Below are positions 4,153 through 55,228 of a stretch of DNA of 64,000 nucleotides, piece by piece. Under the pieces are notes generated by a model. It saw only the letters and a list, made by a program, of their open reading frames with translations. It did no database searches and was not told the DNA's origin. A program made the position numbers and the translations under genes. Within the stretch, counting starts at the first letter, position 1, and the number at the start of each line of letters is the position of its first letter. The DNA comes from an uncultured Cytophagia bacterium (GTDB lineage: Bacteria > Zhuqueibacterota > Zhuqueibacteria > Thermofontimicrobiales > Thermofontimicrobiaceae). The stretch is taken from assembly GCA_964647995.1 (NCBI GenBank), contig CAZYNP010000028.1, positions 1,151-65,150 of the forward strand, written 5' to 3'.

Positions 4153-4196
4153 AAAAGAATAAAAACCCTTCCGAAGGTTCCAAACCTTCAGAAGGG
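4153..4196 (-). terminator. Rho-independent terminator for the minus-strand gene ending at 4219.
   Basis: The 12-bp stem cccttccgaagg/ccttcagaaggg (one G-U wobble) has a ttccaaa loop and is followed on the minus strand by a U-tract (plus-strand aaaagaataaaaa). Confidence 0.6.
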
Positions 4197-4218
4197 TCAC
4201 GTAATCATTTGAAACGGA

Positions 4219-5595
4219 TTATTTCTTCAATTTTTCCAGCGCCCTTTTGGCATCTTCATAGCTGGAATCTAACTGCAGTGCTGCCTCATACGCTTGTTGC
4301 GCAGCCGCTTTATCACCCTTGAGCTCATAAAGTGCCCCCAGCCGAAAATGAGCGTTGGCCCAGGTGGGTTGATTCTCCCCTGGCTCATGCTGCAAATACA
4401 ACTTCAGGCATTCGATCCCTCGTTCCAGATTGGCCCCCGAAAAAACCGCTGTGCGACCGATCTGATACAAAGCAGGATAATAGTCGGGGTGATTTTTGAT
4501 GATCATTTCAAAAATTTTGAAGGCATTATCGTATTGCTTCTTTTGCTGATACAAAAAGCCAACCTGCATCTCGATTTCGATGGTTTGCTCATGATTATTT
4601 TTGATGAGTTCCTGGACCAGGTGCTCTACCTTTTGAGTGTCGCCTTTTTCCAGCAAAATATTGGCATAGGATGAGGCAAAATAACGATCAATTTTGCCAA
4701 CATTCCCGTTAATGACGCGATCGGCCAGCTCGACCCCTCGATCATAATTACTTTTTGAACTGAGGCAATACATGAGGTAAGACCTGACGAGCATTTGGCT
4801 CTCAGGAAATTTCGATATTAATTGGTCGAAAACTTTACTTGCTTTTTCCGACTGCTCTTTATTCACCAGGCTGCGATAAAAATCTCCAAAAACCACATCC
4901 AGAAATTGGCTAGTGGGAAATTCAGTGGCAAACTCCAGCACGGCTTCGGGACCTGAATAAGTGGCGGCAAAGCGAGCCAATTCATAAGCGGAAACCTCGG
5001 CGCTATCTTTGCCAAACGGCAACATGACTTGCCTGGCTCGTTCTGGCTGGCTCAATATTTTTTGAGCGAACTCCGCCATCTTTTCAAAGGCAAAATTCGA
5101 GCGGTACTTTTCCACCAGCCGAGCCAGAACTGCCACCTCTGCAGGATCTTTTTCATAAGCCTGCATTAAATTCAAGAAGTTGTTTTCACCGTGGTAGGTT
5201 TTTTCCAATGTATCCTTGAATTTTTCGGGAGGTGGGTCATAGCCTAGCACCCGATCGATTTCCTGGCCGTCGGCGGTAACGACCATCACCGTCGATGTGG
5301 CTCGAACCGAGAATTTTTTATAAATCTCATCTCCGTCAGGTTGACCCCGATGGGCGCGAAATAGCAGAAAATTTTGGGTGAGATAGGGATGAAATTGTTC
5401 ATCCTGGAAGAATTGCTTGTCCAGCAATCGGCAGCCACCTCAGCCAGCCGAGTAAAAATCGATCAGAATCTTCTTGCCGTCCTTCGCCGCCGTCGCCATC
5501 GCCTCATCGAATGATCCTTTGAACCAGAGTTCATTCTGAGCAAATAACGGTAGGGCGAAGACCAGAAGGATCAACAGCATCAACGGTTTTTTCAT
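4219..5595 (-). CDS. Candidate selenoprotein with a signal peptide, a thioredoxin-fold (Thioredoxin_7/DUF255-like) domain and C-terminal TPR repeats. An in-frame UGA at 5440..5442 is read as selenocysteine (FYSAG-U-GGC-R).
   Basis: The track ORF (4219..5427) starts at TTG. Manual translation upstream in the same frame gives MKKPLMLLILLVFALPLFAQNELWFKGSFDEAMATAAKDGKKILIDFYSAG-TGA-GGCRLLDKQFF... from the ATG at 5593-5595. The TGA falls at the first Cys of the expected CxxC motif. A 6-7 bp hairpin with a GGACA apical loop lies 11 nt downstream of the UGA (CGAUUGCU GGACA AGCAAUU), consistent with a bacterial SECIS element. Confidence 0.55.
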
Positions 5596-5907
5596 TCCTC
5601 GCTCCTGATTTTGGTTCATGATTGAATAGCTGGATTCGGTTATTTAATTAATCAGCCAATACCGTGGGCCACTACGCATTGACCTGACCTGGCCTGTTCA
5701 CGCCAGACCCTGGAATCGTTCCCGAAAAAATCGTTATCCGGGAGCTATGGCAACAAAATAACCCTAAATTAATTCAAAAAGCAACCAGAAATTATTGAAA
5801 TTTGGGAGCACATCAAATTTAGAAAAAAATATTCAACCGATGGCCCAAATCGCAGCCCATTCATCCCAGAACCATTCTGGCACCGGGGTGACGGAATTGA
5901 GCTCAAG

Positions 5908-7071
5908 CTATTTGATCACTAAATTGAGTCCCGTAAACCTGGTGCCAGTTAGCGGATGATCGTTCTCAATTTCAAATTTGCTCCATTGGTATTGCAGGTC
6001 GAAATGATCGGTGACCAGGCGGAGGGTTCGACTCTCCGGGAAAAACCGAGACGCCAATTTCAGCCACCCGGCCAGACCCACACCAATGCCTCTGGTGGTA
6101 TAGCGAACCTGGCCATCCAGATCTTCGTATCTCCCCTGTTGCAAATACACTACTTCCAGGAAATTGATCTGCCAGCCTAGCATTTGAATACTACTGAAAT
6201 TATTTATGAGCAAATCTTCTTCCTCAGTCGCCCATTGGAACGAACTGAGCGTCCAATCCAGGTTGCGCTGCCGCAGGATCATGCCCAGATCGAAACTCAA
6301 GCCCACCCGGGCCGTGCGTGGCAGAGGATCGGACTGAGAAGCCTCGATGTAGGTAATTTCGTCTCCGATATTCCTCATGGCATAGGCCAGCTTGGTAGTG
6401 ACAAACGGCTGCAGGATGCCATGTTTGGATAAGGAAATCGCCAGCGGTTGGCGAATTAAATCCAGCACTGGAACCTGCGCTATGGCGCCGATGTCGAAAG
6501 CGGTCGCTTCGGCCTTGATATCTTTCCATTTTTCCTGCGAAAAGGTTTTCCCCAATCGGCTATCGATTAATTTGATGCTCAGCCCGAAACCCGCTGTAAT
6601 TGCGCCTTGCCAGCCCAAACCGATGGTAATGGCCTCCGATTTTTCCCAGACTTTAAAGGGGCCAAATACCTCACCAGCAGCGTTCTCACAACTTTGGCTT
6701 CCGAGGTCCAGGTATGTTCTTTGAAAACCGATGCCAGCGCTCAGCGCTCCCGGCAATTTAAACCCCACGTTAAAAGCTTTGTTATCGTAAAAAATATCAT
6801 TCGTAATGGCAGGCAACCAGCTCACTCGCTGCGGATAAAAGCCCATCGAAAATCGATGGTTCAGAGAAAAGAGGCCCAGGGTGGCAGGATTATAGAATGC
6901 GATCATGGCGTCCGTTTCGGGCAGGCTCAGAAAAGTCTGTCCCAAGCCATTGGCACGAGGGGACGGGGAAATCAGCAAGAACAAGCAGGCGGCATCGGAT
7001 GCGGCGAAACCAGTGCTCGCCAAAAAACAGATCGCAATAAGAGCCATCAGGACGAGTTTTAGGGTTTTCAT
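5908..7071 (-). CDS. Outer-membrane beta-barrel protein of the PorV/PorQ-like (FadL-like) family; T9SS-associated.
   Basis: It has a signal peptide. The N-terminal motif SPRANGLGQTF...DAMIAFYNPATLG resembles the ARAxALGGA...NPAGL signature of PorV/PorQ/PorP-type barrels, and the size is 387 aa. Other T9SS cargo proteins lie in the window. Confidence 0.45.
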   Translation of the reverse strand: MKTLKLVLMALIAICFLASTGFAASDAACLFLLISPSPRANGLGQTFLSLPETDAMIAFYNPATLGLFSLNHRFSMGFYPQRVSWLPAITNDIFYDNKAFNVGFKLPGALSAGIGFQRTYLDLGSQSCENAAGEVFGPFKVWEKSEAITIGLGWQGAITAGFGLSIKLIDSRLGKTFSQEKWKDIKAEATAFDIGAIAQVPVLDLIRQPLAISLSKHGILQPFVTTKLAYAMRNIGDEITYIEASQSDPLPRTARVGLSFDLGMILRQRNLDWTLSSFQWATEEEDLLINNFSSIQMLGWQINFLEVVYLQQGRYEDLDGQVRYTTRGIGVGLAGWLKLASRFFPESRTLRLVTDHFDLQYQWSKFEIENDHPLTGTRFTGLNLVIK

Positions 7072-8895: not shown

Positions 8896-9519
8896 TTATT
8901 CGGGATAGGCCAGAGCCTGCTCGATTGCTCGAACCACTTCTTCGTCTTCCGGAGCGGTACGAGATCCAAATCGAGCCACGATCTTTCCCTGACGATCAAT
9001 CAAGAATTTATTGAAATTCCAGCTAATATCACCGGCAAATTCAGGATTGGTCTCCTTCTCTGTCAGGTATTTATATAGCGGCGCAATGTCTTTTCCTTTC
9101 ACCGAAATTTTGGAAAACATGGGAAAGGTCACCTGGTAATTGACCGAACAAAACTGTTTGATTTCTTCGTTGCTGCCGGGCTCCTGTCCCAGGAAATTAT
9201 TGGCAGGAAAGCCCAAAATCACCAAGCCTTTATCCTTGTATTGCTGGTAGATTTTCTGCAATCCCGCGTACTGTGGGGTATAGCCACAACGACTGGCCAC
9301 ATTCACAATCATGATTACTTTGCCTTTATACTGCTCCAGCTTCTGATCTTTGCCATCAATATCTTTCATTGTAAAGTCATAGATGGATTTCATTTTTTCG
9401 CCTCCTGTCTGTTCATTTGATCGCACGGCTCGATTAGCAATGCCGAGCCCGAGCAATCCCATCAACATCATCGTCATAATTTTCTTCATGGTAAATTCTC
9501 TCCTGAATTCATTAGTCAT
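8896..9519 (-). CDS. gpx: Glutathione peroxidase (Cys form) with a signal peptide.
   Basis: The VNVASRCGYT active-site motif and the WNFNKFLIDRQGKIVARF C-terminal motif are present. Confidence 0.8.
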   Translation of the reverse strand: MTNEFRREFTMKKIMTMMLMGLLGLGIANRAVRSNEQTGGEKMKSIYDFTMKDIDGKDQKLEQYKGKVIMIVNVASRCGYTPQYAGLQKIYQQYKDKGLVILGFPANNFLGQEPGSNEEIKQFCSVNYQVTFPMFSKISVKGKDIAPLYKYLTEKETNPEFAGDISWNFNKFLIDRQGKIVARFGSRTAPEDEEVVRAIEQALAYPE

Positions 9520-9833
9520 GCCAATTAATTTTTATCCATTAGATGCCCGCGAATCTAAAGAGATTCAGCAAGCCAGATGAAAATTAAACAAGTTGCCAAG
9601 GATTTGGGGACACAATCAACTACTGTCAGCAGGACATCAGCCATATCCCCGCAGCAAACGCCCAACCTTGCCGCGCACTCAAGCCTTTATTCTACTACTC
9701 GATATTCAGCGACCCGCTTAGCTCCACAAACCTTCATGGCCCAATCATCATTTCTATAAAATAAAAAACGGATCCCATTTTGACCAGAACAATGGAATCC
9801 GTTATGACCAAAGCATTTAAGGCAGATTTGCGG

Positions 9834-10340
9834 TTAGAATTTTTTGAATTTGTTGCTTGGGACACCGCATACCGGGCATTTATCCGGCAGATCGCCGTCG
9901 ATCTGCGTATAGCCACACACTGGACAGATGTAAACGGTCTTAAGGGCGAAGTCTTTGCCCTGTTTGACCTTTTCTTTTGCTTCTTGATAGTAGGCAGAAT
10001 GTATTTTTTCGGCTTCCACTGCATAATAAATGGATTTTTCCGCACCCTTTTCATTTTGCAGTTTGGCGATGGCGTCATAGGCCGGGTACATCTCCTCCAC
10101 CTCAAAGTTTTCGCCGTTTATGCCGGTCTGCAAATTTTCCTCGGTTTTGCCGATATAGCCGAGATTCCGAGCATGGTTGGTTGCATGAACCTGTTCGGCA
10201 TAGGCAATGGCTTTGAATAGTTTGGCAATGTTGGGATAACCTTCACTCTCAGCGACATCGCTGAAAACCAGATATTTCATGTGCGCCATGGATTCGCCGG
10301 CGAAAGCTTCGTTCAATGATTTTTCAGTCATCTTTTTCAT
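9834..10340 (-). CDS. rbr: Rubrerythrin with a ferritin-like diiron domain and a C-terminal rubredoxin-like CxxC...CxxC domain.
   Basis: FAGESMAHMKYL...EHATNH and the C-terminal ICPVCGY...KCPVCG are present. Confidence 0.8.
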   Translation of the reverse strand: MKKMTEKSLNEAFAGESMAHMKYLVFSDVAESEGYPNIAKLFKAIAYAEQVHATNHARNLGYIGKTEENLQTGINGENFEVEEMYPAYDAIAKLQNEKGAEKSIYYAVEAEKIHSAYYQEAKEKVKQGKDFALKTVYICPVCGYTQIDGDLPDKCPVCGVPSNKFKKF

Positions 10341-10455
10341 GACTAACCTCTCCAGTTGATAATATGAATCTTAAATTAGGTTAATTATTGTCTATTTCGC
10401 CCAGAAACCAGAGGTGATTGCCAGGACAGATATTGGACATAGCTCGATCGGCACG

Positions 10456-10959
10456 CTAAACCATCGGCCAGAACCGATTGTCATACCATACGCTCTCTTG
10501 CAGCGCCTTATCCAATTCACTTAAAAATTGCAAATGGGTCTTTTCCCAATTGGCCAGCCAATCGAAAAGCTCTTTTTCCAGACCATCGCCGGTGGCCTGG
10601 CCGCGTTGCGAATAGAATCTGACCGCATTCTCCTCCATGCCCATAGCCGCAGCAATGGCCGCAGCCTCGTAGCTCGCAGCGGTAATCTGTTCGCGTATTT
10701 TTTGGGTCAACACCGCGTTGCTAATTCCGGGAGAAGATTGCTCATAACTGATTTCCGATAATTTGCCAGCTCGTACCAGGCTGGCATAGTGCCGCGAGAG
10801 GATGTCGATATGCTTTTCTTCCTCTGCGGCCATGGTCTCGAAGACCTCTCTAACAGCTTCGCTGGCAGTATTGCGGGCTGTTGCTTCGTAGAAGGCTTTG
10901 CCCCTGCGTTCCAGCAAAATCGCGCCTTTGATGATGTCCAATGCTTGCTCGTTTTTCAT
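10456..10959 (-). CDS. Rubrerythrin-family ferritin-like protein (erythrin-type, no rubredoxin domain).
   Basis: Ferritin-like helices with paired ExxH-type motifs (AAEEEKHIDIL; MEENAVRFY) and a size of 167 aa. Confidence 0.55.
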   Translation of the reverse strand: MKNEQALDIIKGAILLERRGKAFYEATARNTASEAVREVFETMAAEEEKHIDILSRHYASLVRAGKLSEISYEQSSPGISNAVLTQKIREQITAASYEAAAIAAAMGMEENAVRFYSQRGQATGDGLEKELFDWLANWEKTHLQFLSELDKALQESVWYDNRFWPMV

Positions 10960-11882: not shown

Positions 11883-14339
11883 TTACTTGATGAGTACCAG
11901 CTTCCTGGTCGCCTCAAAATTGCCGGTCTTCAAGCGATAGAAATAAACGCCAGAGTTCAGCGACCAGCCCCGATCATCCGCGCCCAGCCAGATAATCTTA
12001 TGCAGGCCTGCGGTTTTTCGCTCATTCAAAAGCGTCGCCACTTTCTGGCCCAGCAGATTATAGATCTCCAGCGTCACCTGTGCGCTGGACGCCAATTCAA
12101 ATTGGATGGTGGTTTCGGGATTGAACGGATTGGGTGTATTCTGATAGAGCATAAACCGGCCCGGTACAATTACTTCCCGTGTGGGTGAAAATTGAACCGC
12201 CCCATTCGCATCGATTTGCTTGAGCCGATAATTAAACGCCCCACTCCCGACCGGATTATCGATAAAACGATAATGCTGTGCTTCCGTGGTTGTCCCATGG
12301 CCCGGCACGAATCCGATGTTCAACCAGATGGTGGCACCCGGATTTTGACGCTCTACGGCAAAGCCGTAGTTATTTGATTCGCTGGCTGTGGACCAGTTCA
12401 ATTCCACCCGACTGTTGCTCCATTGCGCATCAAACGAGCTGAGCTCCACCGGCACAATCAAGCTCATCGATTTGAGGATGGTACTATAGGTTCCAACGAC
12501 CCAGCCTACATTTTCATCAATGATCGAGATATCAAACAGGCTGTTAACGGTTCCAATATCAACTTTGTACCAGGTGGCGCCGCCATTCATGGTTTTTAGC
12601 AAAGCGCCTTCCAGGCCTTGTTTAACCGCCCAACCCACCAGCGGGTTGAGAAAGTATATTTTCCGAATATAGTCCGGCTGAGCATTGATGAACTGTTCGC
12701 TCCAGGTTTGGCCGCCGTCCGTGGTTTTTAGGAGCGAATTGCCGCCAATCCAGCCGGTGGTATCATCGATGAAAAAGACCGAATAGAATTTTTCCGTGCG
12801 ACCGGTGGTAACCATGGTCCAGTTAGTGCCGGCGTTTTCGGTGAGCAGTACTGCGCCATTTTCGCCGACAGCCCAACCGCGCTTATTGTTGATAAAATAG
12901 ATATCATGCAGCGTGGCCATCACCGGGCAAGCCTGGCGGGTCCAGTTGGTTCCCCCATCGGTCGTATGCAGAATGATGGAAGAATCCGCCGAGACATTGC
13001 CGCCACAAATCCAGCCAGTATCTTTATCTTTGAAGAAACAGGCATTGAGAAAAAATCTGGTGTTGGCATTCTGAGGCAACCAGTTGCTGCCGCCATCAGT
13101 GGTGTGCAAAATCAGACCCCACTCGCCAATGGCCCACCCCATCTGGTCGTCCACGAAGAAAATATCATAAAGCGTCTCTGAGCTTGGCGTGGTTTGGGCA
13201 ATCCAGTGTTCGCCGCCATCCGTACTCTTCATAATAGTCTTATTTGGGCCGACGGCCCAGCCGATGTATTCAGTGACGAAATTCACACCGAAGAAATTCC
13301 AGACTGCGGTCCCCAAGCTCTTTTCTTGCCAAACGGAGCCGTTATCTTCCGAGCGTATGATCACTCCAGCATTGCCCACGGCCATTACCACATTGGAGTT
13401 ACTGAACCGCACCGAATTCAAATTGCGCAACACATTGCTAATCCCCGCGTTCCAGGTTAGGCCACCATCGTCGGTTCGATACACGGCGCCGTCTTTGCCC
13501 ACCGCGCAACCGACATTGGCGTCCCTGAATGTGATAGACCATAAGGGCGTGTTAGGAACAGTTTGCGATCGCTGAACCCAGGTAAGCCCGCCATCGGCAG
13601 TGTAGATGATCATGCCCGGCGCAGTGATGCCATCGCCGACCGCCCAGCCCTGGAATGCATCAACGAACGATATCGAAAATACTTCTTTGGTCAACCGCGT
13701 ATAAATTGGGGTCCACGTTTGCCCCCCATCTTCAGTTCTCAGAATGATGTCTTCGGGATTTTGGGGAGCCAGGACGTATTTGCTGCCAGCAGCCCAGCCG
13801 AGATTAGGATTACAAAACTGAACTGCGTTCAATACGCTGGCCGCGGCATTTTCAAATACCGTCCAATTCTGTCCACCATCGGTCGTTTTTAGCATTACCC
13901 CAATTTTTTCATTGGACTTTATTTTATAGCCCACGGCCCAGCCGTTGAGATTGTCATGAAAGTATAACCCTCGAATTTCAGCGATATCGGGAATGGTTTG
14001 CGCCGACCAGTTGTTGCCGCCATCGCTTGTTTTCAAGAGGATGCCATTGCTGCCACCGGCCCAGCCGTTATCGCGGTCGCTAAAAAAGACCGCCAGCAAA
14101 TTGCTACTGCTGCCGCCACAATAATGAGCCACGCTCCAATTTTGGCCGCCATTGCTGGTGGTGATAACGGTGCTCACGTCGCCAACGGCGATGGCGGATT
14201 GACCATCAAACAGCCAGATATCGTGGAGCGGATTGCCCTGTGGTTTTGGATTTTGCCAGAACCACTGCTCTGCGGTCTGGGCAATGCTGATGGTCGCCCA
14301 AATAACAATAAGCATCAGCGTCGTCAAACATTTTCTCAT
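11883..14339 (-). CDS. Secreted BNR/Asp-box beta-propeller protein (Ycf48/xyloglucanase-like repeats) with a C-terminal T9SS sorting domain.
   Basis: Many S/TxDGGxxW repeats are present (TSNGGQNWS, KTSDGGNNWS, KTTDGGQNWT, RTEDGGQTWT and others). The C-terminus YQNTPNPFNPETTIQFEL...GVYFYRLKTGNF...LVLIK matches the Por_Secre_tail pattern. It has a signal peptide. Confidence 0.75.
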   Translation of the reverse strand: MRKCLTTLMLIVIWATISIAQTAEQWFWQNPKPQGNPLHDIWLFDGQSAIAVGDVSTVITTSNGGQNWSVAHYCGGSSSNLLAVFFSDRDNGWAGGSNGILLKTSDGGNNWSAQTIPDIAEIRGLYFHDNLNGWAVGYKIKSNEKIGVMLKTTDGGQNWTVFENAAASVLNAVQFCNPNLGWAAGSKYVLAPQNPEDIILRTEDGGQTWTPIYTRLTKEVFSISFVDAFQGWAVGDGITAPGMIIYTADGGLTWVQRSQTVPNTPLWSITFRDANVGCAVGKDGAVYRTDDGGLTWNAGISNVLRNLNSVRFSNSNVVMAVGNAGVIIRSEDNGSVWQEKSLGTAVWNFFGVNFVTEYIGWAVGPNKTIMKSTDGGEHWIAQTTPSSETLYDIFFVDDQMGWAIGEWGLILHTTDGGSNWLPQNANTRFFLNACFFKDKDTGWICGGNVSADSSIILHTTDGGTNWTRQACPVMATLHDIYFINNKRGWAVGENGAVLLTENAGTNWTMVTTGRTEKFYSVFFIDDTTGWIGGNSLLKTTDGGQTWSEQFINAQPDYIRKIYFLNPLVGWAVKQGLEGALLKTMNGGATWYKVDIGTVNSLFDISIIDENVGWVVGTYSTILKSMSLIVPVELSSFDAQWSNSRVELNWSTASESNNYGFAVERQNPGATIWLNIGFVPGHGTTTEAQHYRFIDNPVGSGAFNYRLKQIDANGAVQFSPTREVIVPGRFMLYQNTPNPFNPETTIQFELASSAQVTLEIYNLLGQKVATLLNERKTAGLHKIIWLGADDRGWSLNSGVYFYRLKTGNFEATRKLVLIK

Positions 14340-22605: not shown

Positions 22606-24264
22606 ATGGTTGGCAGAATCCAACAACGGCGGGGTCTCCTCAGAGCCATTGCTTTCTGGCTAAGTTATATCGTCTTGCTCGCATCGCTACGCAGCGAGCA
22701 CAACCCGCAGCGACGACCCACCGGGGGCCACATAACCACCCTGCCACCGCTTCAGCCAGACATCATCGTTGCGCCAGGCGCTGCACAACCTCCAGCGTTG
22801 CCAGACAGCTTTATGAGTTCCAGCCATCGTTTCAACATCCACTATACCACCTTCGGCTCTGATGCCCCGCCCGCGGAGGATGCCAATCACAATGCAGTCC
22901 CCGATTACATCGAACAGATCGCCGCCGCCTTCGATGAAAGCTATCGCGTGGAAATAGAACAGCTCCATTATCGCGAGCCGCCGTCCTTCCAAAACGGCAC
23001 TATGCCCTACCACATTTATGTTCTGAATCTGGGCAATACCAGCGGCCTAACCATCACCGAACTGAAGGACTCCAGCGCTGCGGAAGAAAAAAATGTCTCC
23101 AGCCACATTCTGTTTGAAAATGACTTTGTCGGGCCCGATTTTCATGTTCAGGGTGACGAAGCCATTCGGACCACGGCCGCCCATGAATTTTTTCATGCTA
23201 TCCAACTGGGTTATGTATTTCGCAAAAGCGATAGTTTCTTTTATGAGTTGACCGCGGTCTGGATGGCCGATCGGGTGTTTGATGAGATCGACAAGCATTT
23301 CTATTATCTGGATTATTTTTTCGCTGCGCCAGAGATTCCACTGACTGGCGTGTCGTTTACCATTCCCAATGTCTTCAAACACATCTATGGCTCATGCATC
23401 TTTGCCTTTTACCTGGCCGAAAATTTTGGCATCGATGCCATCCGCTGGATCTGGGAACAGATGCCCGAACAATCCGCCTTGTTGGCCGTGGATCAGCTAT
23501 GCCGAAAGCAGGGCAGCCGTCTTGAGGCTGAATTGGTAAAATTCGCCACCTGGAATTTTTTCACTGGCTGCCGGGCTCAGCCTGGCTATTCGTATTCCGA
23601 AAGCTCACTCTTGCCCGAAATCCGCACCGAAATGGATACTTTGATCCAATATTATCACCAACAGGAGGGAACAGGCTATTTTCTCACAGCCGCCTATTTT
23701 ATTTTTCAGCCCATGGCTGATGGCGAGTTCCGGGTGGTGCTTACGACCGAGCACAAGTCCCACTGGCGGTTGGGAGTCGCGGTTTACGATGCCCTTCGTC
23801 TGGAAACTTTTATCGCTGCACCTGACGAAGAAGTTCACTTGAAAGACATCACCACCGAGCAAAAGATAGTTATCATTCCCTGCAATGTCGATTATACTCA
23901 CAATCCGACCCTGATTTATTTCAAGGAACAGCCCGAGAGCTACACTTTCTATCTGCAGCGGGAAACCAGGCTGCAGCCCGATCTGGCCCGGCCATTTCAA
24001 ATCGAAAAAATTTATCCCAATCCGTTTTCCATCGGAGTCACCTTTTGGATCAAAAAATTGGATTCGGCACCACTATCGATCCAGATTTTCAATATCAATG
24101 GCGAGCAGGTGGCTTGTCTGGCCGAGGAATTGACCATGACCGATCTGACACAGATTCACTGGCGTCCCTCGATGCAGGCAAGTCGGTTAGCTGCGGGAAT
24201 TTATCTCTGTCGATGCTCCAGCCGGGAATATTCAGAAACGATCAAGTTGATCCTCTATCGCTAA
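22606..24264 (+). CDS. Secreted zinc metalloprotease (HExxH) with a C-terminal T9SS sorting domain.
   Basis: It has the AAHEFFHAIQ zincin motif. The C-terminus KIYPNPFSIGVTFWI...NINGEQV...GIYLCR matches the Por_Secre_tail pattern. Confidence 0.6.
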   Translation: MVGRIQQRRGLLRAIAFWLSYIVLLASLRSEHNPQRRPTGGHITTLPPLQPDIIVAPGAAQPPALPDSFMSSSHRFNIHYTTFGSDAPPAEDANHNAVPDYIEQIAAAFDESYRVEIEQLHYREPPSFQNGTMPYHIYVLNLGNTSGLTITELKDSSAAEEKNVSSHILFENDFVGPDFHVQGDEAIRTTAAHEFFHAIQLGYVFRKSDSFFYELTAVWMADRVFDEIDKHFYYLDYFFAAPEIPLTGVSFTIPNVFKHIYGSCIFAFYLAENFGIDAIRWIWEQMPEQSALLAVDQLCRKQGSRLEAELVKFATWNFFTGCRAQPGYSYSESSLLPEIRTEMDTLIQYYHQQEGTGYFLTAAYFIFQPMADGEFRVVLTTEHKSHWRLGVAVYDALRLETFIAAPDEEVHLKDITTEQKIVIIPCNVDYTHNPTLIYFKEQPESYTFYLQRETRLQPDLARPFQIEKIYPNPFSIGVTFWIKKLDSAPLSIQIFNINGEQVACLAEELTMTDLTQIHWRPSMQASRLAAGIYLCRCSSREYSETIKLILYR

Positions 24265-48747: not shown

Positions 48748-49713
48748 CTAAAAGCGTTTTGTATAACCATGACAATACGGATGATGCCCCGTCTTCTGAT
48801 AGTAGGATTGGTGGTACCGCTCCGCCTCCCAGAACGTATCCGCCTTCGTTAATTGCGTAGCCACTTTGTAACCTTTGTCCTTCAAAATTTGGATTAGCTT
48901 CTCCGCAATCTGCTTTTGCTCCTCATTCACATAAAAAATCTCGGAGCGATATTGCTGGCCAATATCAGGCCCCTGGCGATTGACCTGAGTGGGATCGTGA
49001 ATTTCAAAAAACAGTCGAGCTAAAGTTTCAAAATCGGTCTGGGACGGATCGAACACGACCTCCATGGTCTCGGCATGGCCTGTATTGCCTTCGCAGACAT
49101 CGTCGTAGGTGGGATTTTTCAGATGTCCACCCATATAGCCCACTCGGGTGGAGAGCACGCCTTTTTCTTTTTGAAAGAAATATTCCACGCCCCAAAAACA
49201 GCCGCCGGCAAAATAGGCTTTTTCAGTTTTCACTTCTGCTTTTGTTTTTTCATCAGCAGGAATGAAATTCATCGAGATCGAATTCACGCAATGTCGGGTA
49301 TTCTTGGCGGTAAATCCTTCTCCCAAAAATACATGCCCGAGGTGACCGCCGCAGTTGGCGCAGACGATTTCGGTGCGAATGCCATCGGCATCGGGAATTC
49401 GCTTTACCGCTCCAGGGATTTCATCATCGAAGCTGGGCCAGCCACAGCCCGAATCGAATTTGTCTTCGGAGCGATACAGCGGCGCCCCACATTGCTTGCA
49501 CGTGTAAGTCCCCTTTTCTTTGTGATTGTAATACTTGCCCGTAAACGGCCTCTCCGTCCCTTTGTGAAGAATCACCCGTTGTTCCTCTGGAGTCAATTGA
49601 TTGTACTTCATACCACTATCCTGCTTTGTTTTATCCTGTGAAATTAAACTGATCGCAGCTATTGATACGACCAAAATCATCATAGAAATGATAATTGTTT
49701 TCATTTTAATCAC
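48748..49713 (-). CDS. msrAB: Bifunctional peptide-methionine sulfoxide reductase (MsrB-MsrA fusion) with a signal peptide.
   Basis: The MsrB zinc site is CKQCGAPLY...CANCGGHLGHVF and its catalytic region is GCGWPSF. The MsrA motif is GGCFWG. Confidence 0.8.
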   Translation of the reverse strand: MIKMKTIIISMMILVVSIAAISLISQDKTKQDSGMKYNQLTPEEQRVILHKGTERPFTGKYYNHKEKGTYTCKQCGAPLYRSEDKFDSGCGWPSFDDEIPGAVKRIPDADGIRTEIVCANCGGHLGHVFLGEGFTAKNTRHCVNSISMNFIPADEKTKAEVKTEKAYFAGGCFWGVEYFFQKEKGVLSTRVGYMGGHLKNPTYDDVCEGNTGHAETMEVVFDPSQTDFETLARLFFEIHDPTQVNRQGPDIGQQYRSEIFYVNEEQKQIAEKLIQILKDKGYKVATQLTKADTFWEAERYHQSYYQKTGHHPYCHGYTKRF

Positions 49714-49998
49714 CTGCCATTAATAACCTTTCAAAGGTTTAAAGCCTTCGACAGGGTTAGTTCAATATTTAATTGCATTGTCGAAAGAAATTCTCCAACG
49801 GATTGAAACAAGCCAACTGATTAGATAACTATTTATAAATCCGTTGGGTTGTTTCTATCCGTTAGTAAAAAGCTTGGCTTGCTTTCAGGATCTCAAAAAA
49901 ACTCCTTATGCAATTTCCATTATCCCAATCCCTTTTTTGCCATTTTTCACATCCTCAAACTATTTCTATCTGCCGTTTCACGATTCACCTAATCCACA

Positions 49999-50850
49999 TC
50001 ACGATTTTATAAACGTCCCATTCCGATATTCCTGGAACGCCACCATCAATTCCTCATCCGTATTCATCACAATCGGCCCGCGCCAGGCGATGGGCTCGTT
50101 CAATGGCTTGCCCGAAACCCATAGAAACCGAACAGGATCCGCCTGGGTCTGAATCTTGACCCTATCCCCCTGGGTGAAAACAATTAGATGATCGGCCTGA
50201 ACGGAGTCAGCGCTATCGGGATCGAAATAACCGCTGCCCTGAAACACAAAAGCAAACGTCTTGTAATCGGGTTTGGTAGCGATTTCTAATTCCGCATGTG
50301 GAGCGATGGCGACATCAAAATATTCGGTATCCACCACCAAATCCTGAACAGGGCCGTTCGTGCCATTCATTTGTCCTGCAATTATTTTAATCTTCACATT
50401 GGGATTGGGCGAAAACTCGGGGATGGTCTCGCTCCTGACATCCCGATACCTGGGTGCCATCATTTTATGCGACTTCGGCAGATTGACCCAGAGCTGAAAT
50501 CCCCGCATCTCTCCCTCAAATCGTTTTGGCATTTCCTGATGAATGATGCCGCTGCCCGCTGTCATCCATTGCACATCGCCCGAGTAGATCACCCCCCTGT
50601 TGCCCAGGCTATCGCCATGTTCCACCTCGCCCGCCAGCATGTAGGTCACCGTCTCGATCCCCCGATGCGGATGCCAGGGAAAGCCAGCGAGATAGTCCTC
50701 GGGATCATCCGATCCGAAATGATCGAGCAAAAGAAACGGATCGAGCAACGGCTTTTCATAATAGCCGAACACCCGCTTCAATTTCACCCCTGCTCCTTCG
50801 AGGGTCGGCTTGCTTTTTAGAATCTGATTAATTTTTCGGAATCCATTCAT
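49999..50850 (-). CDS. Pirin family cupin protein.
   Basis: It has the HPHRGIETVTYMLAG...H motif. Confidence 0.75.
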   Translation of the reverse strand: MNGFRKINQILKSKPTLEGAGVKLKRVFGYYEKPLLDPFLLLDHFGSDDPEDYLAGFPWHPHRGIETVTYMLAGEVEHGDSLGNRGVIYSGDVQWMTAGSGIIHQEMPKRFEGEMRGFQLWVNLPKSHKMMAPRYRDVRSETIPEFSPNPNVKIKIIAGQMNGTNGPVQDLVVDTEYFDVAIAPHAELEIATKPDYKTFAFVFQGSGYFDPDSADSVQADHLIVFTQGDRVKIQTQADPVRFLWVSGKPLNEPIAWRGPIVMNTDEELMVAFQEYRNGTFIKS

Positions 50851-50933
50851 GGTCTATTTCCTTTGACATTTTTAATTTCAGTTTAGGCGTCACCTGATCG
50901 AAAGAGTCGTAGCCGATAACAAGATGAAAACGG

Positions 50934-51488
50934 TTATTTAAACACCACTCTGGCCGTCGCATCTTCTTTGTAAAAAATCTCATGTCCATCCACCCATTGG
51001 CCGTTCTGAAGATATTGTGATTTACTATGCATTCTGCCATCGGGCAGCAACTCCCCAATGGCCTTCACTTCGGTGATGCCATTCGGATTGCCCGTCACCA
51101 GTTCGTGGCTGATCAATTTTTCCCCATCCACGGTAAATGTGCCGGTCGTGTAGAATCCTGCTGTGGTAAAATAAAAAAACAACAGTTGCTGTTTGTCCCT
51201 GTCCCAATAAATAATGGTCTCGCCACCATAGCTTCCATCATTGACCGAATGCATTATCCTGATGGCCTGACCATTCAGAATCAGTTCCCAGCGAGAGACA
51301 TCTACCATCGGTTTTTCGGCGGTGGCGTTGGCAAATTCACCCCGCCAGGTCTTGCCCACGAACGGCAGAAAAGGCTTCAGATGCTCATTGACCACAGGTT
51401 GATCGCTGGCAGGCTGGGCTTGTTGACCGTAAGCCGAAGCCGATATGAGCATTCCCAGCATCAGACTAACAAAAAAATGCTTATTCAT
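50934..51488 (-). CDS. Secreted hypothetical protein (184 aa).
   Basis: It has a signal peptide (MNKHFFVSLMLGMLISASAYG) and is beta-rich. I recognise no motifs. Confidence 0.45.
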   Translation of the reverse strand: MNKHFFVSLMLGMLISASAYGQQAQPASDQPVVNEHLKPFLPFVGKTWRGEFANATAEKPMVDVSRWELILNGQAIRIMHSVNDGSYGGETIIYWDRDKQQLLFFYFTTAGFYTTGTFTVDGEKLISHELVTGNPNGITEVKAIGELLPDGRMHSKSQYLQNGQWVDGHEIFYKEDATARVVFK

Positions 51489-52007
51489 CCATTCCTCCCT
51501 CAGTTAATATTGCTTAACGCCACCTGGCATAAGTTAAACGATCCAGGTTCGCACTTGCTCCCACCGAACTGAACTCCCATCGAAAAATTTTGTTTTAAAG
51601 TCCCCATACCTTGCCAGGTATTTCATCACAACTCAATTTCTCACCCACATATTTTCACCAGGTGCCATGCCATATCCCCCAAACTCCTTGCGCTATCACT
51701 TCCGCTTGCCTCGCTCGAAGTCGGAGTTTTGGAGCAATGGAGTGCTGCGGATTTCTAACTGTCATTCATTACTCCATCACTCCAATGCTTCATCACTACA
51801 TCATTTCAAAACCATGCATCTAAATTTTCAAATCAAAATGACAGGGTCGACTCCAGATAGCAACAGGCAGCCGACCCTGTCTGTGCGGAGGGTAGTTCTT
51901 CTATTTGCAACTCGATTTCGAGCCAGCACTATCCGAGTAAATCAGCTTTGCCCGCTCATTTCAGGAATTATGCCAATTGCTCCAATTTCTCGATTGGCCA
52001 ATTAGCG

Positions 52008-52138
52008 AAATTCGTTTCGTTAGTGCAATTAGCGGTCTCATCGAGTCTACCACCGATGTCACCACTAACCCGAGTCACACACTCCGCCTCATCAGAAAAT
52101 TAGCGGAATTCGTTTAATTGGCGTCATTAGCGGTCCAC
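52008..52138. repeat. Two copies (A1 at 52008-52049, A2 at 52096-52138) of an AATTAGCG-rich short repeat family; orientation is inverted relative to the B copies at 55184-55470.
   Basis: A1 is ccaattagcgaaattcgtttcgttagtgcaattagcggtctc. A2 is aaaattagcggaattcgtttaattggcgtcattagcggtccac. Both share AATTAGCGRAATTCG and ATTAGCGGTC with the B elements. Confidence 0.7.
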
Positions 52139-52159
52139 TTTGGCCGTCGCTTCCCCTTA

Positions 52160-52768
52160 TCACTTCATCGCCGCATGAAATTTCTCCGCCACGGCCTTCC
52201 AATTGACCACATTCCACCAGGCCTCGATGTAATCGGGACGTCGGTTCTGGTATTTCAAATAGTAGGCGTGTTCCCAGACATCGATGCCCAGGATCGGCGT
52301 CATCCCCTCGCTGATCGGGCTATCCTGATTGGCCGTGCTGCTCACCATCAAGCGACCAGCTTTGACGCTCAGCCAGGCCCAGCCGCTGCCAAAGCGGGTG
52401 GCTGCGGCATTGGAAAATTTTTCTCTAAACGCCTTAAAATCGCCAAACTCTTTTTTGATCGCCGCTGCTAGATCGCCTGTCGGTTCACCGCCTGCGTTTT
52501 TCGCCATAATTTCCCAGAATAATATATGGTTCACATGGCCGCCGCCGTTGTTCCGAACCGCCGTGCGTATGGCCTCGGGCACAGCGTTCAAATCTGCCAA
52601 TAATTTTTCCACGCTATCAGCTTGAAAATTGGCCGATTCCAGCGCTTTATTCAAATTGGTGGTATAAGCCACATGATGCTTGTCATGATGAATCTCCATG
52701 GTGCGCGCATCGATATAGGGTTCTAAGGCATCATAAGCATAATGTAAATTCGGTGTCTTGAAATTCAT
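52160..52768 (-). CDS. sod: Fe/Mn superoxide dismutase.
   Basis: [25 protein letters not shown], the metal-ligand motifs and the C-terminal DVWEHAYY are present. Confidence 0.85.
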
Positions 52769-53007
52769 AATTTGCTCCTTCTATGTTTTGATTCATGTTT
52801 TCATCTTAAAAATTTTTTCCAACGGATTGATGAAGCCAACGGATAATTTTATTAATATCATTTTCTCAGATTTAGCATCAACATCCACATCCAATTAGCC
52901 GATCCACCTGTCATCGTCCCCCTTTTGGAGGATGCCAGTGGGATGTTATTCATCTTGAAACAGGGGAATTAACATCTATGAGTGCAATTTAACTCAATAT
53001 CATTGAA

Positions 53008-53032
53008 ATACCAGACCAAATTGGTCTTATTT
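53008..53032. promoter_or_regulatory. Operator-like palindrome ATACCAGACCAAATTGGTCTTATTT (core AGACCAA-A-TTGGTCT) in the sod upstream region; a near-copy lies at 55911..55935.
   Basis: It is a 15-bp perfect inverted repeat, and 21 of 25 positions match the site directly upstream of the Rrf2 regulator gene. Confidence 0.45.
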
Positions 53033-53064
53033 GTGTAGAAAAAAATTTCTCAATCACGATTAAA

Positions 53065-53159
53065 AACGATTACTAAACCTGAAAAGTTTAGTAATCGTTG
53101 TCCCCTGTTATTTGGAGGTACAATTACCAAACTTGAAAAGTTTGGTAATTGTACCTCCC
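53065..53159. other. Two adjacent perfect hairpins (14-bp and 19-bp stems) with near-identical 7-nt loops (cTGAAAA / tTGAAAA), lying 3' of the RNA ligase gene.
   Basis: The first is aacgattactaaac ctgaaaa gtttagtaatcgtt. The second is ggaggtacaattaccaaac ttgaaaa gtttggtaattgtacctcc. On the minus strand the first is followed by a T-rich run, so it may act as a terminator. Confidence 0.6.
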
Positions 53160-53208
53160 CACTTGTTTCTCCCCAATTACCCAGTTACCCAATTACCTAA
53201 TCACCCAA

Positions 53209-54219
53209 CTACTCTTCATATTTCAACAAAAACTCAGGATTCACGACCTTGAAGCTCAGCCTTCCCAATTCAGGATCTTGCGCCTCGACAACGGGTCGGA
53301 TGACAATGCCTTCCCTGGGAATATCGGGATTGAGCACGCTTTTGTCATTGGACAGCGCCACCAGACCATCCACATCGTGCGTACCCAGGATGTAATCGTC
53401 GCGAATAATGGGCACGGTCTCGAATCCTGCCTCTCTGGCCAGGGCCACAAATTCCTCATAATTCAAATAGACAAAGCGATCGATGTCGAAGATGCTATAG
53501 ATCAGCACCTGGTGGCCAGGCAGTTTATATTTATTGCCCTGAATTTTCGGTCCCAGTATCTCCCCCTGAAAGGCGATGTTGCGATGGAGCTTTCGCAGTT
53601 TGCCCTCGATGTCGTGCAAGCGAGCGACCATCCAGTGGATATTGGTCTCGGTCTCCAGCAACTCCAGATTGCGAGAGCAAACGCCAAACTCACTATCCCG
53701 AATGTAATAGGTGGCGCTGGTGCCATCCACCTTTTCGGTAATATAGCAACGCTGGCCCACGTTTTCAGGTCGGGTGAGCACATCGGGCACGGATTGGATG
53801 CGCATCTCGTCGGTTTTGGGGATGAACCCAGGGAAACTGCCTTTTACCTGGCCGCTGGTCATCACGGCTGGCGGCGGCTCATATTTTTTAATTCCCAGCA
53901 GCTCGGTGACATCCATTCCCTCGCTGATCGGAACGTTTTCCAGCTCTTTGATCTGATGAATAGGAAAAGCAATGCCCTGCGAAATCTGTCCCCGCAGCTT
54001 CACGGTCTTGATCCTGAACTTCCGTGGCCGCAAAAATTCATATTCGGGCTTTTCGGGCAACATGCTGTCGATCTCACAATAGACGCAATAGTCACCCACT
54101 TTGAAATCTCCCTTCTTGACCACCAGTTGCCAGCCCAGCACGGTGGCCTTTTCAATCTTGTCCGCCTCGGGAATTGGCTCCAGACTTTTGATCCGCTGGA
54201 TCGTAGCTAATTTTCTCAT
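53209..54219 (-). CDS. ATP-dependent RNA ligase of the Rnl5 family (DraRnl/NgrRnl-type; TIGR02306-like).
   Basis: It has the N-terminal OB-like domain MRKLATIQRI...ADKIEKATVLGWQLVVKKGDFKVGDYCVYCEIDS and the nucleotidyltransferase motif I ITEKVDGTS with Lys at about residue 163. At 336 aa both the size and the lysine position match DraRnl (342 aa, Lys165) as I recall it. Confidence 0.7.
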   Translation of the reverse strand: MRKLATIQRIKSLEPIPEADKIEKATVLGWQLVVKKGDFKVGDYCVYCEIDSMLPEKPEYEFLRPRKFRIKTVKLRGQISQGIAFPIHQIKELENVPISEGMDVTELLGIKKYEPPPAVMTSGQVKGSFPGFIPKTDEMRIQSVPDVLTRPENVGQRCYITEKVDGTSATYYIRDSEFGVCSRNLELLETETNIHWMVARLHDIEGKLRKLHRNIAFQGEILGPKIQGNKYKLPGHQVLIYSIFDIDRFVYLNYEEFVALAREAGFETVPIIRDDYILGTHDVDGLVALSNDKSVLNPDIPREGIVIRPVVEAQDPELGRLSFKVVNPEFLLKYEE

Positions 54220-54254
54220 TTTTAGACTCCTTTTTCGTCTTGAGTGCCTTTTTT

Positions 54255-54598
54255 AAATATTTTCTCTCCCAGAAACGATATCCCACCGAAATGAATTTTT
54301 AGAATTTTTATTATCAGGGAAGCGGCTTCCTATTACCCTCTATTACCGAATTGCCCAATTATTTTAAAATATTTTTTCCCACAGAAATGAAATCCCACCG
54401 AAATGGATTTTTAGAATTTTTATTATCAGGGAAGTGGCTTCCTATTACCCTATTACCGAATTGCCCAATTATCTTAAAGTATTTTTTCCCACAGAAATTA
54501 AATCCCACCGAAATGAATTTTTAGAATTTTTATTATCAGGGAACGGGCTTCCTATTAACTTATTACCCTATTACCCAATTACCTAATTGCCCAATCCC
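54255..54598. repeat. Tandem array of three units of about 114 bp, each containing TTTTCCCACAGAAATGAAATCCCACCGAAATG, TTTTTAGAATTTTTATTATCAGGGAAGYGGCTTCC and CCTATTACCGAATTGCCCAATTA.
   Basis: The units are at 54255-54370, 54371-54480 and 54481-54598 and are more than 90% identical. The array lies between the trx-like stop (54599) and the RNA ligase start (54219). Confidence 0.8.
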
Positions 54599-55228
54599 CT
54601 AACGACCCGATTTCCACTTGATATTACACCCAATACTTGGTTTTTGATCCTGGCTCACGGGCTTGCCAGCGATGATGGCCTCCAGCGCCGCCCGAAGGTC
54701 TTCGCCCGTTACAGGAATATCATTACTGGGCCGAGAGTCATCCATCTGGCCCCGATAGACCAATTTCAAATCTTTATCGAAAACATAAAAATCAGGCGTA
54801 CAGGCGGCCAGATAGGCACGGGCGACCTCCTGGGATTCGTCGTAAAGATAAGGGAACGGATAACCGAACTGCTTCGCCACTTTTTTCATCTCTGCTGGAG
54901 AATCTTCGGGGTAGCCCTGCACATCGTTGGAGCTAATGGCAATGAATGAAATTCCTTTCGACAGGTAATCCTTTGCCAATTGCACCAACCCTGTTCGAAC
55001 GTGCTTAACAAACGGGCAATGATTGCAAATAAACATCACTACTGTCGCCGTATCCGATTTTAGCTCTTGCAACGATAGTACTTTTCCAGAAATGGTATCG
55101 GGCAATTTGAAATCAGGCGCCGATGTTCCCAACGGCATCATGTTCGATGGCGTGACTGCCATTTGTTCCTCCGCTTTATTTGTGACCGCTAATTTCGCGA
55201 ACGAGACGAATTTCGCTAATTGGCGCAA
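54599..55228 (-). CDS. Thioredoxin-fold protein (AhpC/TSA-redoxin/TlpA-like) with a CxxC motif (CNHCPF).
   Basis: APDFKL...VVMFICNHCPFV is a redoxin-type motif. The start may be the internal Met (MAVTPSNMMPLG). Confidence 0.6.
   Translation of the reverse strand: MRQLAKFVSFAKLAVTNKAEEQMAVTPSNMMPLGTSAPDFKLPDTISGKVLSLQELKSDTATVVMFICNHCPFVKHVRTGLVQLAKDYLSKGISFIAISSNDVQGYPEDSPAEMKKVAKQFGYPFPYLYDESQEVARAYLAACTPDFYVFDKDLKLVYRGQMDDSRPSNDIPVTGEDLRAALEAIIAGKPVSQDQKPSIGCNIKWKSGR

Follow-up and report, generated by a model that had tools for sequence, protein, structure and literature searches.

A UGA-interrupted gene of candidate division KSB1 predicted to encode an exported selenoprotein with thioredoxin-fold and TPR domains

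We analysed a stretch of 64,000 nucleotides (nt) from an uncultured bacterium (contig CAZYNP010000028.1, positions 1,151 to 65,150; hereafter the window), the minus strand of which carries a single reading frame that runs from an ATG at 5595–5593 to a TAA at 4221–4219 and whose sole interruption is a TGA at 5442–5440. We consider it highly probable (roughly 0.88) that this frame encodes a selenoprotein, with the UGA specifying selenocysteine (Sec; U in sequence motifs). In our reading, 5595–4219 is one gene of candidate division KSB1, and its product is an exported protein of 458 amino acids (aa). Comparison of related loci indicates that the UGA, which is codon 52, is a conserved and selected sense position at the N-terminal nucleophilic cysteine of a CxxC motif. 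It also indicates conservation, at the level of the RNA, of a hairpin that starts 11 nt downstream of this codon and carries an apical GG at +21/+22.

The in-frame UGA and its conservation

The gene is split in the program-made list of open reading frames (ORFs), which gives a 59-aa ORF up to the TGA and a 402-aa ORF (4219–5427) from a TTG at 5427. A preliminary description of this DNA had extended the second ORF upstream by 56 aa, in the same frame and through one TGA, and we arrive at the same extension (51 codons + UGA + GGCR); the product length of 457 aa given there has to be corrected, as the read-through product has 458 aa. The full coding sequence (4219–5595, minus strand) comprises these 458 codons and a stop, with one in-frame UGA at 5440–5442 in the local context KKILIDFYSAG-*-GGCRLLDKQFF, and the same arrangement was seen in all 21 related loci. 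We take ATG 5595, rather than TTG 5427 or ATG 5619, to be the true start because a Shine-Dalgarno sequence, AGGAG (5602–5606, minus strand), lies 6 nt before it and is found at the same distance from the ATG in 11 of 11 orthologous loci. The TTG at 5427 has no preceding Shine-Dalgarno sequence. It is a conserved Leu codon within an L-L-D-K-Q-F block and falls inside the stem of the hairpin.

A protein search gave 26 orthologous clusters with 50–99% identity and lengths of ∼402–404 aa, covering 88% of the query, and all 26 start at the same Leu codon (MLDKQFF). DNA was fetched for two genome loci and 65 metagenome loci, 21 of which belong to this subfamily. All 21 have an in-frame TGA in the same column, at protein identities of 28–99% and from different metagenomes and metagenome-assembled genomes (MAGs). 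They also share homology upstream of the TGA, comprising the signal peptide and the pattern W-F-x-G-[ST]-[FL]-D-[ED]-A ... DF[FY]S..-U-G.C. This homology is in the same frame in every locus, with no frameshift, which bears out the continuous frame that had been proposed. As the TGA is kept down to 28% protein identity, it is not a one-off sequence error.

The cut form of these proteins is widespread. Among 1.84 billion representatives, searched exhaustively with HMMER, there were ∼45 clusters (at the 50% identity level), down to 25% identity with the query, in which the match starts at the protein's own residue 1 or 2. These clusters begin just after the motif, and all therefore appear to have been cut by gene callers at the same place. 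In other assemblies the orphaned N-terminus has been called as an ORF of its own, 51 aa long and located just upstream.

The single full-length exception in the HMMER search was P0100, a Cys form (QFHAFG-C-QGCDLL) of the same subfamily, and the ratio of Sec to Cys in the subfamily is ∼40 to 1 by cluster. In the wider exported family that combines a Thioredoxin_7 domain with tetratricopeptide repeats (Trx7-TPR; 44 relatives), ∼22 loci have TGA and ∼21 have Cys at that column. Sec motifs in this wider family include DW-U-KWC, DW-U-TWC and TW-U-KYC, and Cys motifs include DW-C-KWC and TW-C-GWC. One near-orthologous Sec/Cys pair is formed by loci L032 (Sec) and L038 (Cys), and other Cys forms include L022 and L057. 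The redox motif U-G-G-C of the window copy (codons 52–55; 5431–5442, minus strand) aligns with CGPC in the Protein Data Bank (PDB) entry 2KUC, with CQGC in P0100 and with CKWC or CGWC in the wider family. The earlier proposal that the TGA occupies the position of the first Cys of CxxC is thus supported by a Cys aligned there in 2KUC (W-C-GPC), P0100 (FG-C-QGC) and ∼21 Cys-form relatives. Such Sec/Cys pairing is the classical signature by which selenoprotein families are defined (PMC13188914).

The protein on the two sides of the TGA belongs to a single domain. The read-through product was scanned against Pfam with U replaced by C, and matched PF13899 Thioredoxin_7 at residues 26–88 (44.3 bits, cutoff 27) and PF13098 Thioredoxin_2 at residues 36–129 (35.7 bits, cutoff 27). 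Both matches straddle the TGA, and there is therefore one thioredoxin (Trx) fold across it, in one frame. From the Pfam, PDB and NCBIfam similarities, this domain (residues 26–129; 5209–5520, minus strand) is of the DsbD-gamma/Thioredoxin_7 type. Its best solved relative is 2KUC, a ‘putative disulphide-isomerase’ (E = 1e-11, residues 26–128), in which the first Cys of WCGPC aligns with codon 52, and within NCBIfam the domain is most similar to the C-terminal ends of DsbD and TsoB.

The hairpin downstream of the UGA

The predicted core of the selenocysteine insertion sequence (SECIS; bSECIS in its bacterial form) lies at 5411–5429 on the minus strand. The hairpin GAUUGCU-GGACA-AGCAAUU is the minimum free energy (MFE) structure. 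Its first nucleotide is the 11th after the UGA, and it has a stem of 7 bp, including one G-U pair, and a GGACA apical loop (5422–5418). The published bSECIS criteria are a loop of 3–9 nt, an upper stem of 4–16 bp, G in the first two loop positions, 16–37 nt from the UGA to the loop and an MFE of −7.5 kcal/mol or lower (PMC13188914, Fig. 2). The window hairpin falls within all of these limits, with a 5-nt loop that starts with GG, a 7-bp stem, 17 nt between UGA and loop, and −8.8 kcal/mol for the 40-nt hairpin region. The hairpin had previously been judged to fit the bacterial SECIS model from the window alone; the published criteria and the covariation described below both agree with that assignment.

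The same hairpin was the predicted, minimum free energy structure 3′ of the UGA in all 22 sequences. In an alignment of 18 sequences, standard pairs were present in 94.4% of cells, compared to 13–56% when the 3′ partners were slid. Changes on both sides were found in three of the seven pairs, and none of 500 shuffles reached the observed covariation score. In L008 and L009 the stem is AUCGCU/AGCGAU and the encoded peptide changes from L-L-D-K-Q to S-L-D-E-R. Since the compensatory changes in these two loci alter the protein, we would argue that it is the RNA pairing, and not the peptide, that has been preserved. Codons −1 to +17 around the UGA show essentially 100% codon identity across 10 orthologues, compared to ∼0.2–0.6 elsewhere in the gene; on sequence grounds, such a block would be the footprint expected of an RNA element within a coding sequence.

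In the Sec forms of the wider family, hairpins of a similar kind carry (U)GGA-type loops at +18 to +22. In the near-orthologous pair, the stem pairing is lost in the Cys form (L038) and kept in its Sec sibling (L032). Across the wider family the mean MFE was −12.2 kcal/mol for Sec forms and −9.4 kcal/mol for Cys forms, a difference that is too weak when taken alone. It is the recurring, positioned hairpins rather than the mean MFE that are the informative part of this comparison.

The element resembles the SECIS of Escherichia coli fdhF, in which the hairpin likewise lies ∼11 nt after the UGA, the loop GGUC is at +22 to +25 (GGACA at +21 to +25 here) and the core has a similar stability (−5.7 kcal/mol for fdhF, −6.3 kcal/mol here). 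It differs in having the loop GGACA (GGUUC, GGAUC or GGGUC in paralogues) instead of GGUC, no bulged U and an AU-rich stem, and in being followed by a second hairpin specific to the orthologues. By analogy with known bacterial Sec insertion, SelB-GTP-Sec-tRNASec would bind the hairpin and deliver Sec at the UGA in the A site, and translation would continue.

The second hairpin, GGAUGAA-CAAU-UUCAUCC (5387–5404, minus strand), was found on folding and lies 6 nt after the SECIS core. The codons that contain it, +12 to +17, are identical in 10 of 10 orthologues, and it is absent from the paralogues L013–L020. It could extend the SECIS in the orthologues alone, or else act as a pause site or in regulation.

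Selenocysteine machinery and alternative readings

Several observations weigh against reading 5595–4219 as a selenoprotein gene. The identity of residue 52 as Sec is a prediction from sequence. The hairpin is unremarkable when a single sequence is considered: its fold is not significant relative to shuffles (z = −1.2 for a 61-nt stretch) and the core hairpin alone reaches only −6.3 kcal/mol. What sets it apart from a chance fold is the comparison of related sequences, with the TGA column, the covariation and the lost synonymous variation. Within the comparison, double changes are found in only 5 of 126 cells and the stem largely overlaps the conserved L-L-D-K-Q-F codons, the conservation of which could be partly protein-driven. 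Neither the window of 64 kb, which contains no tRNA, nor the flanks that were fetched gave any selA, selB, selD or selC/tRNA-Sec, as searched by a tRNA-Sec and Rfam scan of the window and 26 loci and a Pfam scan of 40 window ORFs, and KSB1 clade II is reported to be without selA, selB and selD (PMC9012183). There is no conserved operon partner among the orthologue neighbourhoods, and the function is deduced from the domains. A DsbD_2-like gene 2 kb away in L070 was considered as a partner; it is not conserved across loci and was set aside.

To these points can be added a substitution in the window copy itself. The cis-proline position of the Trx domain (codon 101; 5293–5295, minus strand) is Pro in relatives and Ser (TCG) here; in the loop A-T-P-T-V, the Pro (alignment column 45) is present in at least 90% of the family. 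The Ser may alter the function or could be a miscalled base. L004/P0001, which is 99% identical to the window, has CCG (Pro) at this codon; the Ser may be a true variant of the strain or an artefact of base calling. Changes of the cis-Pro to Ser or Thr in Trx-family proteins stabilise mixed-disulfide intermediates. Codon 139 (5179–5181) also departs from the family, being Asn in the window copy where Thr is nearly invariant (T139N).

The affiliation of the DNA bears on the missing machinery. An exact-match scan of genome contigs with the 58 nt around the TGA gave no hit, and the exact 402-aa ORF of the window has no database record; the assignment to KSB1 is based on named relatives and synteny. 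Every named relative of the selenoprotein is from candidate division KSB1, and the block upstream of the gene is syntenic with the KSB1 MAG JAPDQM010000009.1 at 54–95% protein identity (a 387-aa protein of unknown type, nitronate monooxygenase, glutathione peroxidase (GPx), two rubrerythrins and a BNR protein with a type IX secretion system (T9SS) domain). The genes selA, selB and selD have been reported in KSB1 MAGs of clades I, III and IV (PMC9012183), and KSB1 is among the phyla with predicted Sec-containing group 4 ([NiFeSe]) hydrogenases (PMC13582414). Given the KSB1 affinity and these reports, the source genome is likely to carry the Sec machinery.

A first alternative is that the UGA is decoded as an ordinary Trp, Gly or Cys, by reassignment of the code or by near-cognate read-through, with no involvement of selenium. 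Reassignment (of the code 4 or 25 type) would likewise give a conserved in-frame TGA with homology on both flanks, and it would sit easily with the failure to find Sec machinery in the window. However, 11 of the 40 long window ORFs end in TGA, and a scan for ORF pairs joined by an in-frame TGA gave no credible second TGA-interrupted ORF in the window, from which we conclude that the genetic code is standard. The site is moreover the catalytic Cys of CxxC, with homologues that pair Cys and not Trp or Gly with the UGA; the conserved, covarying hairpin at an fdhF-like spacing would be left unexplained; and selABD are reported for the phylum (PMC9012183). We regard decoding without selenium as very improbable.

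We attach equally little weight to a second alternative, in which the locus makes two products: a 51-aa secreted peptide that ends at a true UGA stop and a 402-aa TPR protein that starts at TTG 5427. All of the relatives are annotated in this way by gene callers and NCBI, and because recoding of UGA is never 100% efficient, a certain amount of the 51-aa product should arise regardless. Two separate genes are nevertheless implausible because a single Trx fold would be severed at the active site, and the larger product would have no signal peptide, no β1 and no CxxC nucleophile. The translation signals point the same way, with no Shine-Dalgarno sequence at the TTG and a conserved AGGAG before ATG 5595, and the TTG itself is a Leu codon shared by the L-L-D-K-Q-F block and the hairpin stem. 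Finally, the Cys-form relatives are single, continuous proteins.

Although P101S and T139N, at nearly invariant positions, might be a sign of weakened constraint on the window copy or of miscalled bases, a pseudogene or sequencing error (a nonsense mutation, or a miscalled TGC or TGG) can be dismissed because TGA and frame are conserved in every relative, the same TGA being present in 21 independent loci and ∼45 representative clusters, with the full length under purifying selection in orthologues and no frameshift.

Protein architecture, gene neighbourhood and known systems

The selenoprotein is predicted to start with a signal peptide, MKKPLMLLILLVFALPLFA, followed by QNE (residues 1–19; 5539–5595, minus strand), in which no lipobox could be read. 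An equivalent K/R-rich n-region, hydrophobic core and A-x-A-like end are present in all orthologues when read by eye, in agreement with the signal peptide that had been noted in the added N-terminus. Beyond the Trx domain, residues ∼140–458 (4222–5178, minus strand) are predicted to form an all-helical TPR superhelix. TPR_14, TPR_6, TPR_2 and TPR_1 were above their Pfam cutoffs, with TPR families on residues 306–453. An AlphaFold model of the 402-aa part alone, which places the Trx active site outside the model, is all-alpha with 20 or more helices (mean predicted local distance difference test score, 87.8). With Foldseek, the best PDB matches of this model were eight-repeat consensus TPR proteins (CTPR8) and the TPR domain of OGT (E ∼1e-7); the PDB fold search thus gave generic TPR matches only and no functional homologue. 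The gene is followed by an intrinsic terminator (4164–4198, minus strand), detected by a terminator scan and visible in the sequence as a 16-bp stem and a T-run.

From this domain content we tentatively suggest that the protein could be a periplasmic thiol-disulfide (or sulfenate) reductase or isomerase with a TPR client platform. The signal peptide, of the secretory (Sec-pathway) kind, would direct export to the periplasm, where the selenolate of the DsbD-gamma-like Trx domain would attack client disulfides and the TPR superhelix of ∼320 residues would serve as a platform for binding clients or partners. Such a function would be analogous to that of a Trx+TPR chaperedoxin, but in the cell envelope.

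The family amounts to 40 or more clusters at the 50% identity level, and KSB1 genomes hold several paralogues of 400–730 aa. It is plausible, if somewhat short of an even chance, that this is a large, almost exclusively Sec, exported Trx7-TPR family acting as a selenium-dependent periplasmic ‘chaperedoxin’ in envelope protein repair, with the gene described here as its type example. Paralogues in KSB1 and related bins fall into several length classes (P0074, 733 aa; P0124, 515 aa; P0092, 452 aa; L013–L020, ∼510 aa). They have expanded repeat regions with recurring ‘NLESAL...YGP’ units, and all are cut at the UGA in the databases. Judged from these sequences, it is mainly in the TPR part that the Sec-containing Trx-TPR family seems to have diversified.

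Two further loci were of note with respect to the TPR region and the active site. L004 (JGI24188J35168_1003002) is 99% identical to the window until nt ∼1043 of the gene (window ∼4553) and unrelated thereafter, which indicates an assembly break, a chimera or a rearrangement within the TPR-coding region. In L053 (Ga0326597_10001878), a wider-family relative, S-K-W-S replaces C/U-x-x-C and the Trx-TPR layout is kept; this redox-dead form hints at a scaffold function that is independent of redox chemistry.

Directly upstream of the gene is a 387-aa ORF (5908–7071, minus strand) that has a signal-like N-terminal sequence and no Pfam match at E ≤ 1e-5. An ORF with 54% identity occupies the same position in the KSB1 MAG JAPDQM01 (L001, 8484–9728). 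The preliminary description had also drawn attention to an adjacent AlbA_2 cassette, which has no visible bearing on the selenoprotein gene; orthologue neighbourhoods are not conserved. Oxidative-stress genes lie at 8896–10959 and 48748–55228 and include an exported GPx (VASRCGYT), two rubrerythrins, an MsrB-MsrA fusion, a pirin, an Fe/Mn superoxide dismutase and an AhpC/TSA peroxiredoxin, all of which are Cys and not Sec forms. Of the relatives, only the closest has the same enrichment. As candidates for further selenoproteins, the GPx and the peroxiredoxin nearby were rejected as Cys forms, as was a GPx-like match in L017, which is a Cys redoxin. Two large secreted proteins (11883–14339 and 22606–24264) have C-terminal T9SS sorting domains (Por_Secre_tail). 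These point to a diderm, T9SS-bearing organism, which is consistent with a periplasmic selenoprotein.

Few kinds of bacterial selenoprotein are commoner than UxxC proteins of the Trx fold whose genes have a bSECIS next to the UGA. The closest description is that of the ‘Thiol:disulfide interchange protein’ family, a predicted selenoprotein family of PF13098 type with UxxC (PMC13188914, PMC9312934). The KSB1 protein shares with it the Trx-like fold, the Sec at the first Cys of CxxC, the bSECIS right after the UGA and the existence of Cys homologues. It differs in the addition of the C-terminal TPR superhelix, in having Gly instead of Trp before the Sec (SAG-U-GGC) and in belonging to a subfamily that is overwhelmingly Sec (∼40 to 1). 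Compared by description, the subfamily may already fall within the ‘Thiol:disulfide interchange’ family (exemplar WP_011366075.1).

Among Cys proteins, the closest sequence relatives of the Trx domain are 2KUC and the DsbD gamma domain (E ∼1e-3 for DsbD-gamma chains). DsbD gamma and the 2KUC-like Thioredoxin_7 proteins are periplasmic, as is predicted here from the signal peptide. The NCBIfam model of DsbD (NF001419) scored 34.1 bits against a cutoff of 330, with only the gamma-domain part (model positions 466–571 of 574) aligned, and identity as a full DsbD was therefore rejected: the KSB1 protein has no membrane or alpha domains, has Sec instead of Cys and is fused to TPRs. The Trx7/PDZ selenoprotein (NF041199) is similar in combining a Thioredoxin_7-type domain, a protein-interaction domain and Sec, and differs in having CxxU (Sec second) and PDZ where the KSB1 protein has UxxC and TPR. 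None of the curated NCBIfam selenoprotein models came near its cutoff (TsoB NF045694, 36.9 against 805; NF041199, 16.5 against 300) and none besides these two gave a hit, and no mention of a TPR-fused Sec family was found in two recent selenoprotein inventories or the searchable literature.

The fusion of a secreted, Sec-containing Trx-like domain to TPRs had initially been called an unusual architecture. For the combination of Trx and TPR domains this does not hold, since Trx+TPR is the architecture that defines CnoX/YbbN (PMC10998233), and many Cys-form relatives share the exported Trx7-TPR layout. The CnoX/YbbN chaperedoxins (PMC10998233, PMC8129009) likewise have an N-terminal Trx domain and a C-terminal TPR, and a shared logic, in which a redox-active site is coupled to a client-binding scaffold, is plausible. 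CnoX is, however, cytoplasmic, with a classical Trx domain (SxxC in E. coli), a short TPR and no Sec, whereas the KSB1 protein has a signal peptide, a domain of the DsbD-gamma/Thioredoxin_7 type, UxxC and a much longer TPR. No CnoX/YbbN match was seen in the NCBIfam, PDB sequence or fold searches and the resemblance is one of domain order only. Membership of CnoX/YbbN was ruled out by the signal peptide together with this lack of a sequence or fold match.

In public annotation every named relative is a cut ‘tetratricopeptide repeat protein’ without signal peptide and active site. Once the Sec codon is recognised, a whole exported redox family is restored and the selenoproteome of an uncultured phylum is enlarged. 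With its Sec bias and missing Trp, the family is well suited to the question of why certain enzymes of the Trx fold keep selenium, and its tight, fdhF-like SECIS with natural compensatory variants lends itself to testing how SelB recognises a SECIS in bacteria other than Proteobacteria. Neither Sec decoding nor thioredoxin chemistry has to be understood differently in the light of these results. Relative to known systems, the gene is thus a solid and seemingly uncatalogued case of a familiar protein type, in which both the mechanism and the architecture have precedents; what is new is a family that has no curated selenoprotein model, is dominated by Sec and has no canonical Trp before its active site.

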